Below are positions 374 through 22,614 of a DNA stretch of 41,656 nucleotides, piece after piece (positions within the stretch are counted from its first letter, which is position 1; every line of letters starts with the position of its first letter). The translations under genes and the position numbers were made by a program. Location of the stretch: the NCBI GenBank assembly GCA_043800255.1, contig JAZDNF010000007.1:1-41656 (forward strand). The letters are read 5' to 3'. Under the pieces are notes generated by a model. It did not search any database. It was not told the origin of the DNA and worked only from the letters and a program-made list of their open reading frames with translations. The DNA comes from Candidatus Altiarchaeota archaeon (GTDB taxonomy: Archaea > Altiarchaeota > Altiarchaeia > IMC4 > SCGC-AAA252-I15).

Positions 374-1018
374 CTACTTGACTTTCACGCTTGCGAGGAC
401 GTGGTCTTTTATGTAGGGGCTCAGGTTTATCACTTCCGTGACATTGTACTGGGCTCTCAGCTTCCCAACCTCCTCCTTGAATATCTTCTCAGGGTTGACT
501 GCGGAGTCGATGCTCCTCGCCTTGATGGTTATCATCGCGTCAGCCGGGCTGAAGGTTTTGATGTTCTTGATGAGTATGCCGGACTGGTCGCGCTGCGCCA
601 CGTCCTGGTAAATGAAGTCGACCGGGCCGATGCTGTTCATGTAAGTCTGAGGCCTCATGGCGTCTCCCAGTATCGGTATCATGTTCTTCTTCGCCTCGCA
701 GACAGGTAACAACTCATGCATCATCCTCTTCGAGAATTCGACGCAGTATACCATGCCCTCCGTCATGTCAGCCACATGGGACGCCGTTGTGCCGCCTGAA
801 GCGCCCAGGTATAGCACGTCAGAGCTCTTCTGTATGGGCAGCCTCCTGAGGCCGTTCAGTATGGCGGCAGCGAGCTTGCTCCTGAAGGGGTCCCACATCC
901 TGTACTCTCTTCCCCCCTCCCTGAAGAGTTTTTCATTGTAGACTCTGAAGCCTCTTGCGGAGTTCACCGTCGCCAGCCTGCCTCTCGCCATGTAGACTCC
1001 GTTGAACTTTTCTCTCAT
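374..1018 (-). CDS. flpA: fibrillarin-like rRNA/tRNA 2'-O-methyltransferase
   Basis: Motifs YRMWDPFRSKLAAAI, VLYLGASGGTTASHVAD and YQDVAQRDQ. Confidence 0.97.
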   Translation of the reverse strand: MREKFNGVYMARGRLATVNSARGFRVYNEKLFREGGREYRMWDPFRSKLAAAILNGLRRLPIQKSSDVLYLGASGGTTASHVADMTEGMVYCVEFSKRMMHELLPVCEAKKNMIPILGDAMRPQTYMNSIGPVDFIYQDVAQRDQSGILIKNIKTFSPADAMITIKARSIDSAVNPEKIFKEEVGKLRAQYNVTEVINLSPYIKDHVLASVKVK

Positions 1019-2674: not shown

Positions 2675-3109
2675 TTGCGGCGGATAAATATTAACGTGGA
2701 AATCATCATCGAGACGCCGAAGTGGAGCTTCATAAAGTATAAGTTTGTTGGCGGCTCTTTTGTCAGGTCTCTGGTCTCGCCTTTTCCGACGCTCTACAAT
2801 TATGGTTTTGCCGTCGGCTCTGTTGGGGGTGACGGCCAGCCGCAGGATGTCCTGGTTCTGGGCCGGAGGCTGCCTGCTGGGACAAGACTTAATGCTAACA
2901 TTTTAGGTTATGTGCAATTCCAAGACAAGGGTTTAGAAGATAATAAGCTGATATGTGTGCCATCAGGCAGAATATCCCTAGCAGACCGGTTAATGATTGA
3001 CATGTTCTTCAGAGCCTATAGTTTATTCAAGAGAGCGTACTATCTGTTCAAATACTCTAAGTCGGTTGGATGCAGCTATAACGGTGTTATTTTATATAAT
3101 TCAAAATAG
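2675..3109 (+). CDS. short family I inorganic pyrophosphatase-like protein (start uncertain: TTG 2675 or GTG 2696)
   Basis: VEIIIETPK...KY, YNYGF, GGDGQPQDVLVLG and DNKLICV match the soluble PPase layout. This is the C-terminal part of track ORF 2282..3109. Confidence 0.7.
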   Translation: MRRININVEIIIETPKWSFIKYKFVGGSFVRSLVSPFPTLYNYGFAVGSVGGDGQPQDVLVLGRRLPAGTRLNANILGYVQFQDKGLEDNKLICVPSGRISLADRLMIDMFFRAYSLFKRAYYLFKYSKSVGCSYNGVILYNSK

Positions 3110-4741: not shown

Positions 4742-5452
4742 ATGGCCGAGTTTTCCGTTATACTGGTGGGCGCCAAGTACGAGGGTAACGTGGGGAGCGT
4801 GGCGAGGGTGATGAAAAACTTCGGCCTCTCGGATCTTATCCTAGTCGACCCGCCGGAGCTGAGCAGGGAGGCGAGGCAGAAGGCGATGCACGCCCAGGAG
4901 ATACTGAAAGGTGTGAGAGAGTACGATAGTCTGGACCAGCTTAAGCACGAGTTCGACTTCCTGGTGGGGACATCAGCCATAACAGGCACGGACAAGAACT
5001 CGCTCAGGGTTCCCATCAGGCCGTGGGGCCTTGCGAACGCGCTGCAGGGGAAAGGCAGAGTGGGCCTGGTCTTCGGCAGGGAGGACTACGGCCTCAGCAA
5101 CGAGGAGATAAGATTGTGCGACGTCTTCGTCACGATACCGGCTGACAGAAAATATCCGACGCTCAGCCTCCCGCAGTCTGTCGGCATAATCCTCTACGAG
5201 CTCTCTAGGCTGAAGTATGCTGACAAGGCCAAGGGCATGAAGTTTCGTGAGTTCAGCAAGAAGGAGAAGGAGGTCCTCCTGGAGAAGTTCGACGGCCTCG
5301 CTGACATGCTCTACGAGGGAGACTTCGAGAACAGGCTGGTGAAGAAGACGTTCAGGCAGCTGATAGGCAGGGCCTTCATAGCCGGGAGGGAAGCCTACAC
5401 CCTGATAGGGCTTTTCAGGAAATCGGCCGAGAGGATTGGAAAGAAAGGCTGA
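4742..5452 (+). CDS. trmJ: SPOUT RNA methyltransferase, TrmJ/LasT family
   Basis: Motifs GNVGSVARVMKNFG, LVFGREDYGLSNEE and YPTLSLPQSV. Confidence 0.9.
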   Translation: MAEFSVILVGAKYEGNVGSVARVMKNFGLSDLILVDPPELSREARQKAMHAQEILKGVREYDSLDQLKHEFDFLVGTSAITGTDKNSLRVPIRPWGLANALQGKGRVGLVFGREDYGLSNEEIRLCDVFVTIPADRKYPTLSLPQSVGIILYELSRLKYADKAKGMKFREFSKKEKEVLLEKFDGLADMLYEGDFENRLVKKTFRQLIGRAFIAGREAYTLIGLFRKSAERIGKKG

Positions 5453-7631: not shown

Positions 7632-8591
7632 TCACATCTTCCCCTTCTTGAGGATGTCCTTCAGGTCTTTTGACATCTCCTTCAGATATGGGGCTTCGAC
7701 GTTCTCTTGGATGCGCTTTGAAATCGTGTTGTAGACTTTCTTCGGGTTTGGTATGCCGAAGAGGGCGTAGCTGCTTCTGGTCCTGGGGACGTTGACGCTC
7801 TGCCCTCCCGTCACCGCGCCCCCGAATATGGGCCCCTGGCCTCTCTGTCCTGCGACGCCGAGGCTCACGGCCGCGAAGTCGTCGCCTATCCCCAGGCCCG
7901 AGGCTGTTATCGGTATCAGCGTCCCGAAGTTGAATATCCTGCCGATGAAAGGCTGGTCTACTACCATGTTGTTTATCTTGTCATAATTTAATGCGTTCTC
8001 CTTGTATCCGAAGAACTTCAGCTGGGTGATGATCCTGAAGTTTGTGACGTAGAACCTGTGGGCTCTCCTGAACAGTTCGACGCCTCCTATCCCCACAATC
8101 GAGAGCAGTATTGCAATGTAGTATGTGGCCTCCCCAGGCAGGCCTAACCCAAGTGTTATGCCGACGCTGAGCAGGCCCACCGCATTCATGATGAAAATCC
8201 ACCTCCACGATATCCTGAATACCGAGATTGCGAAGCCGAAAGATACCAGCAGCACAATCCATAGCAGCACTGGCAGGTACTCTTGCGAGGATATGGTGTG
8301 CACCACAGACCCGACGAACATGCCCATGAACATGTTAATGTCGCTCAATACTGGAATCATGCCAGCCCACGGCGAGTCCATGTCGCCTGTGAACGGCATG
8401 AGCAATCCCACAACAGATGCAAGCGGGTACCTGAACAGCTCAGCCAGCTCGTCAGCGTATACTATGAACATCAAGCTCAAAGCTATTATCACAGCCCATA
8501 TGAGGAAAAGGCCATAGAATGCGAGAACATGCGGCCTCAGATTGGCCTCAATCTTCTCCCCCTCGAGAAGCTCCAGATGGTCCTCGTCCAT
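7632..8591 (-). CDS. membrane protein with C-terminal bacterial PH (bPH_2)-like domain
   Basis: Several hydrophobic helices followed by FYVTNFRII...YDKI...DQPFIGRIFNFGTL. Start placed at MDEDHLE (8591), with TTTATA on the minus strand at 8620-8625. Confidence 0.75.
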   Translation of the reverse strand: MDEDHLELLEGEKIEANLRPHVLAFYGLFLIWAVIIALSLMFIVYADELAELFRYPLASVVGLLMPFTGDMDSPWAGMIPVLSDINMFMGMFVGSVVHTISSQEYLPVLLWIVLLVSFGFAISVFRISWRWIFIMNAVGLLSVGITLGLGLPGEATYYIAILLSIVGIGGVELFRRAHRFYVTNFRIITQLKFFGYKENALNYDKINNMVVDQPFIGRIFNFGTLIPITASGLGIGDDFAAVSLGVAGQRGQGPIFGGAVTGGQSVNVPRTRSSYALFGIPNPKKVYNTISKRIQENVEAPYLKEMSKDLKDILKKGKM

Positions 8592-8628
8592 AACATTAAT
8601 ATTATACTGCATCAGCCAGTATAAATCT

Positions 8629-8770
8629 AAGATTTCCACCAGTCTATTGACTGGTGGCGGAAATCTTCTGTCAAGAACCGCCGGTGTGGCGGAGGCAGAT
8701 GCCTCCGACACGCGCCCGAGCAAGGCTCGGCCGCGTCAGAGACCAGTGGCATGTGAAGTGGTTCTTGACA
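8629..8770. ncRNA. unidentified highly structured element (candidate ncRNA or MITE)
   Basis: Hairpin 8629-8667. Stem tgtcaagaacc/ggttcttgaca (8669-8679/8760-8770) encloses hairpins cggaggc-agat-gcctccg and ccgagc-aag-gctcgg. T5 tract at 8775-8779. Confidence 0.5.
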
Positions 8771-8778
8771 ACGCTTTT

Positions 8779-8832
8779 TCAGCACTCATAAGCATCATCA
8801 CAGCCTGAGGCTCAGCCAGCCTATGTCATCAT
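8779..8832 (-). ncRNA. box C/D guide sRNA; D guide predicted to target C34 of tRNA-Met(CAU)
   Basis: Minus strand reads ATGATGA cataggctgg CTGA gcctcaggct GTGATGA tgcttatgagtg CTGA, giving perfect C, D', C' and D boxes. The D guide is complementary to CACUCAUAAGCA. Confidence 0.9.
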
Positions 8833-8858
8833 CAGATAATAATCTGAAGCAGACATTA

Positions 8859-10205
8859 TTAAGTTCTTCCGCGTTTTTTCAGCGCCGCTGACAGCGTATC
8901 CTCGACGGTCTTCCTTATCTTTTCGAGCTTTTCCGGCGTGTCTGCTTCGAATCTGAGTATGAGGGCTGGCTGGGTGTTCGAGGCTCTTATGAGGCCCCAC
9001 CCTCCTTTGAAGTTTATCCGTGCGCCGTCGACTGTTATCACGTTGTGGTCTTTCTGGAATTCTCTTGTAACCTCTTCGACTATGTCGAATTTCAGGTCGT
9101 CGGGGCAGTCGACCCTTATCTCAGGAGTCGAATAATAGTGGGGCATCCTCTCTACCATGTCTGAGAAGCTTTCACCTGATTTTGAGAGTATCTCAGCCAT
9201 CCTCGCCGAGGCGAATATGGCATCATCATATCCATAGTAGTTGTCAGCGAAGAAGAAATGCCCTGACATCTCTCCTGCAAGCAGGGCTTTTTCGCTTCTG
9301 ATCTTCTTCTTGATGAACGAGTGACCTGTCCGGTACATTATCGGTACTCCGCCAGCCTTCTCTATCTCCTCGGGCAGGGCTTTCGAGCATTTGACCTCGA
9401 ATATTATCTTCGCCTTTTTGTGCCTGCTTAGTATGTCCTTTGAGAAGACTATCATCGCCTGGTCTCCTCTGACGATGCTGCCTCTGTCATCCACGAAGCC
9501 GGCTCTGTCGCCGTCGCCGTCATATGCCACTCCCAGGTCAGCATTCTCCTTTCTGACTTTCGCTATCAGGTCTCCCAGGTTCCCGTCCACAGTCGGGTCC
9601 GGATGGTGGTTCGGGAAGTTCCCATCCGGCTTGCAGTAGAGTTCTATGACTTCGCACCCCAGCGTCCGGAAGAGCGTCGGGGCTGTAATGGACGCGGTGC
9701 CGTTTCCTGCATCAATCACCACCTTCAGCTTTTTCCCCGGCTTTATCCTCTCTCCAACATATTCCAGGTAGTCGCCTTCGACATCCCTCTGTTTGAGCTT
9801 GCCTTTGCATTTCCTGTATTTTCCCCGTTCGATTATCTTCCTGAGCTCCTGTATCTGCTCGCCATATAGTGCGTTCTTTCCCTTGCAGAGTTTGAAGCCG
9901 TTGTATTCCGGCGGGTTGTGGCTGCCGGTTATCATGGCGCCCCCGTCCAGCCCGTAATGGTAGATTGAAAAATATAATAAAGGCGTTGATACTGTCCCTA
10001 CGTCCTCAACGTTAACGCCTGCCGACAGTATGCCCCTGATGAGGGCATCTTTTAGTGTCGGGGAGCTCAGCCTGACGTCGCATCCTACTGAAACTGTTCC
10101 AGAGCCTATTACCGTGCCGAACGCTTTCCCTATCTTTTCCGCGACTTCCTCTGTCAGGTCTTTATCGTAGACTCCCCTGATATCGTATGCCCTGAACAAT
10201 GACAT
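8859..10205 (-). CDS. phosphomannomutase/phosphoglucomutase
   Basis: Motifs FRAYDIRG, ITGSHNP, DGDGDR, GEMSGH and RASNTQP. Confidence 0.95.
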   Translation of the reverse strand: MSLFRAYDIRGVYDKDLTEEVAEKIGKAFGTVIGSGTVSVGCDVRLSSPTLKDALIRGILSAGVNVEDVGTVSTPLLYFSIYHYGLDGGAMITGSHNPPEYNGFKLCKGKNALYGEQIQELRKIIERGKYRKCKGKLKQRDVEGDYLEYVGERIKPGKKLKVVIDAGNGTASITAPTLFRTLGCEVIELYCKPDGNFPNHHPDPTVDGNLGDLIAKVRKENADLGVAYDGDGDRAGFVDDRGSIVRGDQAMIVFSKDILSRHKKAKIIFEVKCSKALPEEIEKAGGVPIMYRTGHSFIKKKIRSEKALLAGEMSGHFFFADNYYGYDDAIFASARMAEILSKSGESFSDMVERMPHYYSTPEIRVDCPDDLKFDIVEEVTREFQKDHNVITVDGARINFKGGWGLIRASNTQPALILRFEADTPEKLEKIRKTVEDTLSAALKKRGRT

Positions 10206-21615: not shown

Positions 21616-22614
21616 ATGAAAATCATAAGTCCGGTTCTTTTGATTGCATTGCTGCTTGTGCTCGCGCCCGCCTCGCACGCTGAGGACAGCCCTCAGATGA
21701 GGTTCGGAGGGCAGGTTGTCATAGACGAGGACGTCACAGGAGACCTTATAGTGTTCGGCGGCCAGATAACAGTGAACGGCGACGTCGACGGGAACCTTAT
21801 GGTCTTCGGCGGCCAGGTTACCGTGAACGGAGAGGTCACAGGAGACCTGCTCGCTGCAGGCGGTGACGTCACAGTCAGCGGAGACGTTGACGGAAACCTG
21901 CAGGCATACGGCGGAAACGTTCAGGTGAACGGCGTCGTCGAGGGAGACGCTGACCTGGGCGGGGGAAACATCATACTAGGCTCTGACGCAGAAATACAGG
22001 GAAGCCTCACCTACGGCGGACCTCAGACGCCTAACCTCTTCGAAGGCAAGGTGGCAGGCCAGATAAAACAGTCCAGTAGCAAGGTGAAAGAGCCAAGCTT
22101 CGTGGAAGAGAGTCTGGGGCCCTTGCGGCTCATATTCGGCATATTCGGATTCGTTGGCGGGATAGTGTACGCGCTCGTCCTGGGCGCACTCATACTGTAC
22201 CTGTTCCCGAAGTTCGCCACACAGGCCACCGAAGTCGTGAAGGCCTCGCCGATAAAGTCAGGTTTAATCGGGCTGCTGATGCTGGCAGCCGTTCCAGTCC
22301 TTGTCGTCCTGTCAGTGCTGACGCTCGTAGGCTGGAAGATCTCCGTGATACTGGTGTCGTCTATGGCGGTTATGTTGCTGATCTCGACATTCCCTGTCAA
22401 GCTCGTTGTCGGAGAATTCCTCTACAATAAGGCGTTCAACAGGAAGAGCAGGAGGATAGTATACTACGCGTTCGGAGTCATCGCATACGCTCTCATCTAC
22501 CTCATACCGCTGGTGGGGTGGCTGACGAAGCTGTTGACCGTGCTGATAGGGTACGGCGGACTCTGGATTCTGCTTATGAGGGCTAGCAGGCTGGGCGGGA
22601 AGATAAAAGTCTGA
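21616..22614 (+). CDS. signal peptide + bactofilin-like beta-helix repeats + multi-TM domain
   Basis: 17-aa repeats of the type GDLIVFGGQITVNGDVD, followed by about six hydrophobic helices. Confidence 0.8.
   Translation: MKIISPVLLIALLLVLAPASHAEDSPQMRFGGQVVIDEDVTGDLIVFGGQITVNGDVDGNLMVFGGQVTVNGEVTGDLLAAGGDVTVSGDVDGNLQAYGGNVQVNGVVEGDADLGGGNIILGSDAEIQGSLTYGGPQTPNLFEGKVAGQIKQSSSKVKEPSFVEESLGPLRLIFGIFGFVGGIVYALVLGALILYLFPKFATQATEVVKASPIKSGLIGLLMLAAVPVLVVLSVLTLVGWKISVILVSSMAVMLLISTFPVKLVVGEFLYNKAFNRKSRRIVYYAFGVIAYALIYLIPLVGWLTKLLTVLIGYGGLWILLMRASRLGGKIKV

Follow-up and report, generated by a model that had tools for sequence, protein, structure and literature searches.

A candidate box C/D guide RNA for C34 of intron-containing elongator tRNA-Met in Altiarchaeota

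On the minus strand of an Altiarchaeota contig, shortly downstream of a mutase gene, the four boxes of a box C/D RNA follow each other within 54 nucleotides. What does this locus encode and, if it is a guide RNA, which nucleotide of which RNA would it mark for methylation? The window, i.e. the whole stretch of DNA analysed, is 41,656 nucleotides long and comes from Candidatus Altiarchaeota archaeon (assembly GCA_043800255.1, contig JAZDNF010000007.1, called C9 below); the genome consists of 17 contigs, totals 1.75 Mb and is 93% complete. A first-pass annotation had read the locus as a guide for the wobble cytidine of elongator tRNA-Met. In our view, the locus is very likely the gene of a stand-alone box C/D sRNA of ~55-65 nt, which is predicted to guide 2'-O-methylation of C34 on the unspliced elongator pre-tRNA-Met.

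The locus, its boxes and its surroundings

The features of the locus, and two methyltransferase genes of the same window, are as follows (window coordinates).

8855..8863, minus strand: TATA-like element CUUAAUAAU, overlapping the stop codon of the upstream mutase gene
8826..8832, minus strand: box C, AUGAUGA; its UGAUGA is invariant in 22/22 aligned homologues
8834-8829, minus strand: alternative register of box C, an overlapping UGAUGA (read from the sequence)
8816..8825, minus strand: D' spacer CAUAGGCUGG, 10 nt, probably without function as a guide
8812..8815, minus strand: box D', CUGA (from the sequence and the homologue alignment)
8802..8811, minus strand: D'-C' linker GCCUCAGGCU, 10 nt, with a small GCC/GGC hairpin and the loop UCA
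8795..8801, minus strand: box C', GUGAUGA (from the sequence and the homologue alignment)
8783..8794, minus strand: D guide (D spacer) UGCUUAUGAGUG, 12 nt, complementary to elongator pre-tRNA-Met
8779..8782, minus strand: box D, CUGA, invariant in 22 homologues
380-1015, minus strand: fibrillarin gene (PF01269, 255.9 bits)
4742-5452, plus strand: gene for a TrmJ/YjtD-family methyltransferase

Read from the sequence, positions 8832-8779 of the minus strand form a complete box C/D RNA with four perfect boxes, as the first-pass annotation had described it, and the 26 nt that it counted between the mutase stop codon and box C are also correct. The upstream open reading frame (8859..10205, minus strand) contains all four phosphoglucomutase/phosphomannomutase domains. 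The D spacer has the canonical length of 12 nt, while the D' spacer measures 10 nt, or 13 nt in the other register of box C. The terminal stem is weak, its flanks allowing U-A, C x A and U-A alone; the boxes imply the tandem G.A pairs of a terminal C/D K-turn, a motif that folding programs do not model.

The four-box pattern (R-UGAUGA, 9-14 nt, CUGA, 3-22 nt, UGAUGA, 10-13 nt, CUGA) occurs at two loci in the whole 1.75-Mb genome, at none in the reversed genome and at none in each of five first-order Markov genomes. No Rfam family reaches its gathering score over the sRNA locus. The best sub-threshold match, RF01126 (sR41), scores 25.4 bits (E 4.8e-4) where 54 would be required, a result that tells little about class membership, since the C/D families in Rfam are guide-specific.

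Four perfect boxes occur at just one further locus, C13:11630-11678 on the plus strand, which has 12-nt spacers and a 4-nt linker of the K-loop type. Its D' guide forms 10 contiguous Watson-Crick pairs with the sense strand of 23S rRNA in 4/4 loci of relatives, at a site that we take to be the A-loop U2552-equivalent. The D guide of this second locus matches nothing on the sense strand. Neither 16S nor 23S rRNA is assembled in the genome studied here.

Over the 22 homologous loci, positions -31 to -28 from box C have an A+T fraction of 0.9, with words of the TTAA/TATA type, despite differing upstream genes. The sRNA is thus likely to have its own promoter, for which the TATA-like element at 8855..8863 is the putative candidate, and from which it would be expressed. 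Directly downstream of the sRNA, positions 8778-8600 of the minus strand are strongly structured (z = -4.1 to -4.5), with a long-range stem of 11-15 bp, two inner hairpins and then a 16-bp hairpin. This segment is a MITE-like repeat, two modules of which recur at 85-98% identity in at least eight other places (C8:141654-141738, C8:128786-128895, C11:47302-47466, C11:111070-111168, C5:71842-72000, C16:9627-9750, C1:24207-24313 and C7:297137-297247). A search against Rfam gave no match for it, and its repeat copies, together with its non-conservation beside the sRNA of relatives, led us to reject it as an H/ACA RNA or as a 3' extension of the sRNA. The annotated TTG start of the open reading frame at 7632..8723 lies inside the repeat, so that translation probably begins at a Met further downstream.

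The proteins of a methylating complex are encoded in the genome. Fibrillarin and TrmJ do share the window with the sRNA, as the first-pass annotation stated; we know of no bearing of TrmJ on position 34. The genes for Nop5 (C15:13725-14393) and L7Ae (contig C10) are present, as is that for the tRNA splicing endonuclease. Fibrillarin and Nop5 genes are neighbours in many archaea; here ~380 nt separate the fibrillarin gene from the end of contig C9 with the low coordinates, and Nop5 is on a different contig. With L7Ae, Nop5 and fibrillarin, the sRNA would form an sRNP.

Of the two spacers, the D' spacer is probably non-guiding, which would leave the D' half a structural role only. Among homologues, even close relatives, it is conserved neither in sequence nor in length (9-15 nt). 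The first-pass annotation had left its target unassigned. Among eight rRNA loci of relatives (16S and 23S of this genome being unassembled), the best complement is 8/10 with internal mismatches, equally good on both strands, and the 36 predicted tRNA genes offer none that convinces, since runs of 8-9 are reached only with the help of G.U pairs (in the anticodon stem of tRNA-Pro(GGG), for instance, wobbles supplement five Watson-Crick pairs). The exact D' 10-mer occurs seven times elsewhere, where about three occurrences are expected, and none of these is in a tRNA. On account of the unconserved spacer and the weak rRNA and tRNA complements, we provisionally reject the D' spacer as a real guide.

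The linker between D' and C' is structured. In 19/21 sequences, a hairpin of 2-6 bp directly adjoins D', and two bases separate its end from UGAUGA. A MAFFT alignment of the linkers was out of register for this hairpin and was replaced by an anchored stem count and a model-fitted alignment. By the anchored count, the 21 linkers together contain 71 bp of stem; shuffled linkers give 36.8 +/- 4.1, and none of 2000 shuffles reaches 71. In the model-fitted alignment, which leans towards the structure of the model, 93.7% of 79 cells are paired, compared with 14-66% in slid controls. Cells changed on both sides number 27, against 7.9 +/- 2.1 in shuffles (0/500). The typical archaeal C'/D' motif is described in a passage of PMC6009581 as a K-loop. 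From the linker stems, the C'/D' motif of this sRNA family appears to be closed by a helix, making it a K-turn instead of the usual K-loop.

The predicted target and its splice region

Standard tRNA scans find few genes in this genome: six intron-less ones with aragorn, and 12 Rfam tRNA matches, eight of which are longer than 100 nt. In most tRNA genes here, a long intron (about 40-110 nt) occupies the canonical position; examples are C11:63260-63444, C11:96624-96757, a gene near C11:42090, C8:213948-214093 and C13:14577-14651. Standard scans miss the numerous intron-bearing tRNA genes here, which calls for caution in annotation. A pyrimidine-rich hairpin of the type CCCUUUCUUU-loop-AAAGAAAGG is common to many of the tRNA introns and to stretches just downstream of several tRNA genes; the same hairpin is present in the tRNA introns of relatives. 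With introns allowed, aragorn predicts two CAU tRNAs, both on contig C11.

C11:63260-63444, minus strand: gene A, elongator tRNA-Met, acceptor GCCGAAG, 111-nt intron directly after A37
C11:96624-96757, minus strand: gene B, CAU tRNA, acceptor GGGCCUG, 59-nt intron

Apart from its anticodon, gene B hardly differs from the tRNA-Ile(GAU) gene on that contig, for which reason we take gene B as tRNA-Ile2 and gene A as elongator tRNA-Met. The initiator tRNA, a conceivable second target, was not found in this assembly.

The precursor of gene A reads ...GACUCAUA up to the exon-intron junction and AGCG... after it. With this precursor, the D guide forms 10 Watson-Crick pairs (guide positions 2-11, counted from box D) and a G.U pair at position 12. 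The duplex covers nucleotides 31-37 of pre-tRNA-Met and, with guide positions 9-12, nucleotides 1-4 of the intron, thereby crossing the exon-intron junction. The fifth guide base from box D is a G and pairs with C34, the C of CAU, as the D+5 rule had been applied in the first-pass annotation. The sole mismatch is at guide position 1, which adjoins box D (G opposite G). Of the 36 tRNA genes predicted by aragorn, none pairs better with the D guide than gene A, whose run of 11 includes 10 Watson-Crick pairs; the next-best partners have runs of nine with 6-8 Watson-Crick pairs, and the precursor of gene B makes seven Watson-Crick pairs and one G.U. The guide lies on contig C9 and its target on contig C11, i.e. 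the guide is encoded outside the tRNA gene.

This complementarity, with C34 at D+5, supports the reading of the sRNA as a guide for Cm34 of elongator tRNA-Met, and the earlier surmise that the end of the guide might pair with a pre-tRNA intron holds for the first four intron nucleotides. Absence of a complementary stretch from every CAU tRNA had been named as what would speak against it; gene A carries such a stretch. The target as literally written fared less well: a complement is present in a CAU tRNA-Met precursor, albeit with a G.U pair besides its 10 Watson-Crick pairs, while the exact 12-mer CACUCAUAAGCA is absent from the genome outside the sRNA gene itself. One copy of the D-guide complement with a single mismatch, at window positions 22571-22582 on the minus strand, is antisense inside the open reading frame 21616..22614 and has no tRNA-like features; a partial D' complement of 7-8 nt lies 12 nt upstream of it. 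The 12-mer has two such one-mismatch matches and ~8 are expected by chance, for which reason this copy was rejected.

By inspection, the anticodon stem of gene A (CCAGA/UCUGG) is followed by a 4-bp helix of CUCA (nucleotides 32-35) with UGAG near the 3' end of the intron, and then by an outer helix of GCG (intron nucleotides 2-4) with the CGC that directly precedes UGAG. The central helix is flanked by two 3-nt bulges, each of which holds a splice site. The splice region of gene A is a canonical bulge-helix-bulge motif. In the predicted complex, the 12-nt D guide would bind across the 5' exon-intron junction, to the nucleotides from which the precursor builds the central helix, 5' bulge and outer helix of this motif, and the D+5 rule would set the 2'-hydroxyl of C34 in the active site of fibrillarin. 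As the guide duplex overlaps the bulge-helix-bulge motif, binding of the guide and splicing would be mutually exclusive, and methylation would have to precede splicing.

Guide, intron and homologues in the phylum

A module consisting of the C' box, four free bases, UAUGAG, two free bases and the D box occurs in 23/41 genomes of the order and in 35/61 of the phylum; the reversed pattern gives no match. Box C and box D' are present upstream at every module match with upstream sequence on the contig (in G018 the contig stops too early to show them). From 22 module matches we built a covariance model, which detects the RNA in 47/61 Altiarchaeota genomes, nearly always in one copy each. Among the 22 aligned homologues, positions 3-8 and 10 of the D guide are invariant, and positions 2, 11 and 12 follow the target. 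Outside this invariant core, flanks, D' spacer and linker vary freely.

Some homologues deviate in their boxes or copy number. At loci L206, L203 and L198 (genomes G001, G011 and G002; positions 1501-1572), which are among the additional loci that the covariance model detects, D' is CCGA and C' is UGACGA; U has thus been replaced by C in both boxes, at the positions whose bases make the U.U pair of the K-turn. The UGACGA variant of C' is also present at L098. Genome G040 (L010/L179, C63:3466-3640) has two tandem copies of the sRNA ~110 nt apart with identical D guides, the second with a 9-nt D' spacer and a 6-nt linker devoid of a hairpin. The gene order of mutase and sRNA is partially conserved: in other Altiarchaeota metagenome-assembled genomes the sRNA is just downstream of a mutase gene on the same strand at L091, L092 and L096 (about 2860-2920, plus strand) and on the opposite strand at L090 and L098.

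A search for the 5' halves of CAU tRNAs gives two classes in 39/41 genomes. The class with GCCGARG nearly always has an intron that starts with AGC, AGU or AGG straight after A37. All 22 genomes that have both the sRNA and an intron-bearing tRNA-Met gene allow a continuous duplex of 9-12 pairs around C34 with the precursor. The corresponding duplexes comprise 6-9 pairs with tRNA-Ile2 and 7-9 pairs with the presumed spliced tRNA-Met, for which A38 and the complement of nucleotides 27-31 were assumed, exon 2 being taken from the prediction for the genome studied here (G000) only.

The variable guide positions change together with the tRNA gene. Guide position 11 pairs with intron nucleotide 3 in 20/22 genomes, mostly as G-C, as A-U in G034, G035, G052, G042 and G044, and as C-G in G054-G058; the exceptions, G006 and G038, have A opposite C. 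At guide position 2, the pair with nucleotide 31 is U-A in eight genomes and C-G in 14 (22/23, the exception being G022), and at position 12 a compensatory difference with respect to intron nucleotide 4 is found in G042 and G044. These are counts over related genomes, in which independent changes are few, roughly one for position 2 and two or three for position 11. The covariation of guide and intron supports the precursor as the likely substrate.

A rival reading is that the sRNA acts on C34 of mature, already spliced tRNA-Met and that its complementarity to the intron serves no function. Eight contiguous pairs (nucleotides 31-38) do persist with the spliced form, and genome G036 has an intron-less tRNA-Met gene (L033) and has kept the sRNA, with eight pairs, so that pairing with an intron is not strictly needed everywhere. 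In G036, however, the four 5' bases of the guide have changed, i.e. the part that elsewhere pairs with the intron has diverged, whereas where the intron is present guide positions 10-12 track it through three types of pair in 20/22 genomes. In addition, spliced tRNA-Met and tRNA-Ile2 are identical from nucleotide 30 to nucleotide 40 in this genome and in family f1, so the guide could not separate the two once they are spliced. We therefore regard action on the mature tRNA as very unlikely.

A different role, mainly without methylation, would be for the RNA to cover the 5' splice site and the central helix and thus to time or chaperone the splicing of pre-tRNA-Met. The overlap of the duplex with the splicing motif and the conserved pairing with intron nucleotides would fit such a role, but in all homologues C34 falls precisely at D+5, the boxes that would place fibrillarin are perfect, and a pure antisense RNA would need neither a 12-nt spacer nor a box D. 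As the main function this is very improbable; an effect on the timing of splicing could coexist with methylation.

The anticodon loops of the two CAU elongator tRNAs are identical, and the pairs that the guide can make with pre-tRNA-Ile2 could suggest that tRNA-Ile2(CAU), or both tRNAs, are the target. Yet the duplex with tRNA-Ile2 is shorter than that with tRNA-Met in 13/13 genomes in which both genes were read, and on the precursors of the present genome 11 positions are paired with tRNA-Met and eight with tRNA-Ile2. In family f5, where the two tRNAs differ at nucleotides 30-31, the guide bases adjoining box D match tRNA-Met and not tRNA-Ile2. Moreover, C34 of tRNA-Ile2 is converted to agmatidine. 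A role of tRNA-Ile2 as a target is scarcely probable. Finally, to a chance arrangement of motifs or a dead gene, which the weak terminal stem and the sub-threshold Rfam scores might suggest, we give next to no credence, given the complete absence of such arrangements from the control genomes, the single copies in 47/61 genomes, the constancy of the guide core amid freely changing flanks, D' spacer and linker, and the compensatory changes in the linker helix.

Unspliced elongator pre-tRNA-Met is the most probable substrate of the predicted guide, and in this organism the intron part of the duplex would be what separates tRNA-Met from tRNA-Ile2.

Known C34 guides and the intron of tRNA-Met

Guides for this nucleotide are familiar from other archaea. 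Clouet d'Orval and colleagues are said to have described Pyrococcus sR49 in 2001 as a guide for Cm34 of tRNA-Met. In Haloferax volcanii, sR-tMet, studied by Joardar and colleagues, is reportedly an experimentally supported, trans-acting Cm34 guide that needs the intron-containing elongator precursor; it is said to be ~75 nt long in that species, with a 3' extension and an atypical C'/D' motif containing a pyrimidine-pyrimidine pair. Against this description, the Altiarchaeota RNA differs in having canonical C'/D' boxes and a closing helix, although its homologues in G001, G002 and G011 carry CCGA/UGACGA.

Both precedents named in the first-pass annotation can be traced in the literature. According to Grosjean et al. 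(2008, PMC2584109), Cm34 formation in intron-containing tRNA-Met is directed by a stand-alone C/D sRNA, as had been predicted for Pyrococcus sR49; the same source mentions 18 euryarchaeal sRNA candidates for Cm34 of tRNA-Met, with part of the intron pairing with the sRNA. The haloarchaeal sR-tMet appears in a table of Hori (2014, PMC4033218), with reference to Joardar et al. (2011). As sR49 is described in that passage, the Altiarchaeota RNA shares with it a stand-alone gene outside the tRNA gene, C34 at N+5, a duplex that takes in intron nucleotides and methylation before splicing, the last being a prediction here. Compared by description, the two differ in phylum, and the Altiarchaeota RNA has a helix-closed C'/D' motif (2-6 bp) and a 10-nt D' spacer. 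The consensus D guide of RF01126 (Pyrococcus sR41) likewise has a UAUGAG core with the C of CAU at D+5, although that model has a short linker of the K-loop type where the Altiarchaeota RNA has a hairpin insertion. By its predicted pairing and gene arrangement, the Altiarchaeota RNA belongs to the known sR49/sR-tMet kind of guides.

More distant parallels exist. In humans, SNORD97 and SCARNA97 are reported as box C/D guides for 2'-O-methylation of C34 in elongator tRNA-Met(CAU) (Vitali and Kiss 2019, PMC6601510); as described there, these are an intron-encoded snoRNA and scaRNA of a eukaryote, and, unlike the Altiarchaeota tRNA-Met, their target tRNA is intron-less. For archaeal pre-tRNA-Trp, passages in PMC2584109 and PMC7714728 describe an intron guide with which a fibrillarin RNP methylates C34 and U39 of the intron-containing precursor. 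The duplex involves intron nucleotides in that case too, but the pre-tRNA-Trp guide, as described, sits inside the intron of its own target, whereas the Altiarchaeota guide is a separate gene on another contig. A full-text literature search found no description of box C/D RNAs in Altiarchaeota.

Why the tRNA-Met gene of this lineage has an intron at all may be connected with the guide. We tentatively suggest, while holding it for rather doubtful, that the intron is retained as an address label: the first intron nucleotides alone would steer the sRNP to C34 of tRNA-Met, sparing C34 of tRNA-Ile2 for agmatidine. A co-evolving pair of this kind would fit the three types of pair through which the guide tracks the intron, the decay of the guide after intron loss in G036, and genome G031 (93% complete), which has an intron-less tRNA-Met gene (L072) and in which neither the pattern nor the covariance model found the sRNA.

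For the annotation of Altiarchaeota genomes, the covariance model can be used to locate this RNA. The prediction would extend RNA-guided formation of Cm34 on unspliced elongator tRNA-Met to an uncultivated phylum, the Altiarchaeota. With guide and intron on different contigs, their covariation amounts to a clean natural experiment, and it offers a concrete reason why archaeal tRNA-Met genes may retain their intron.
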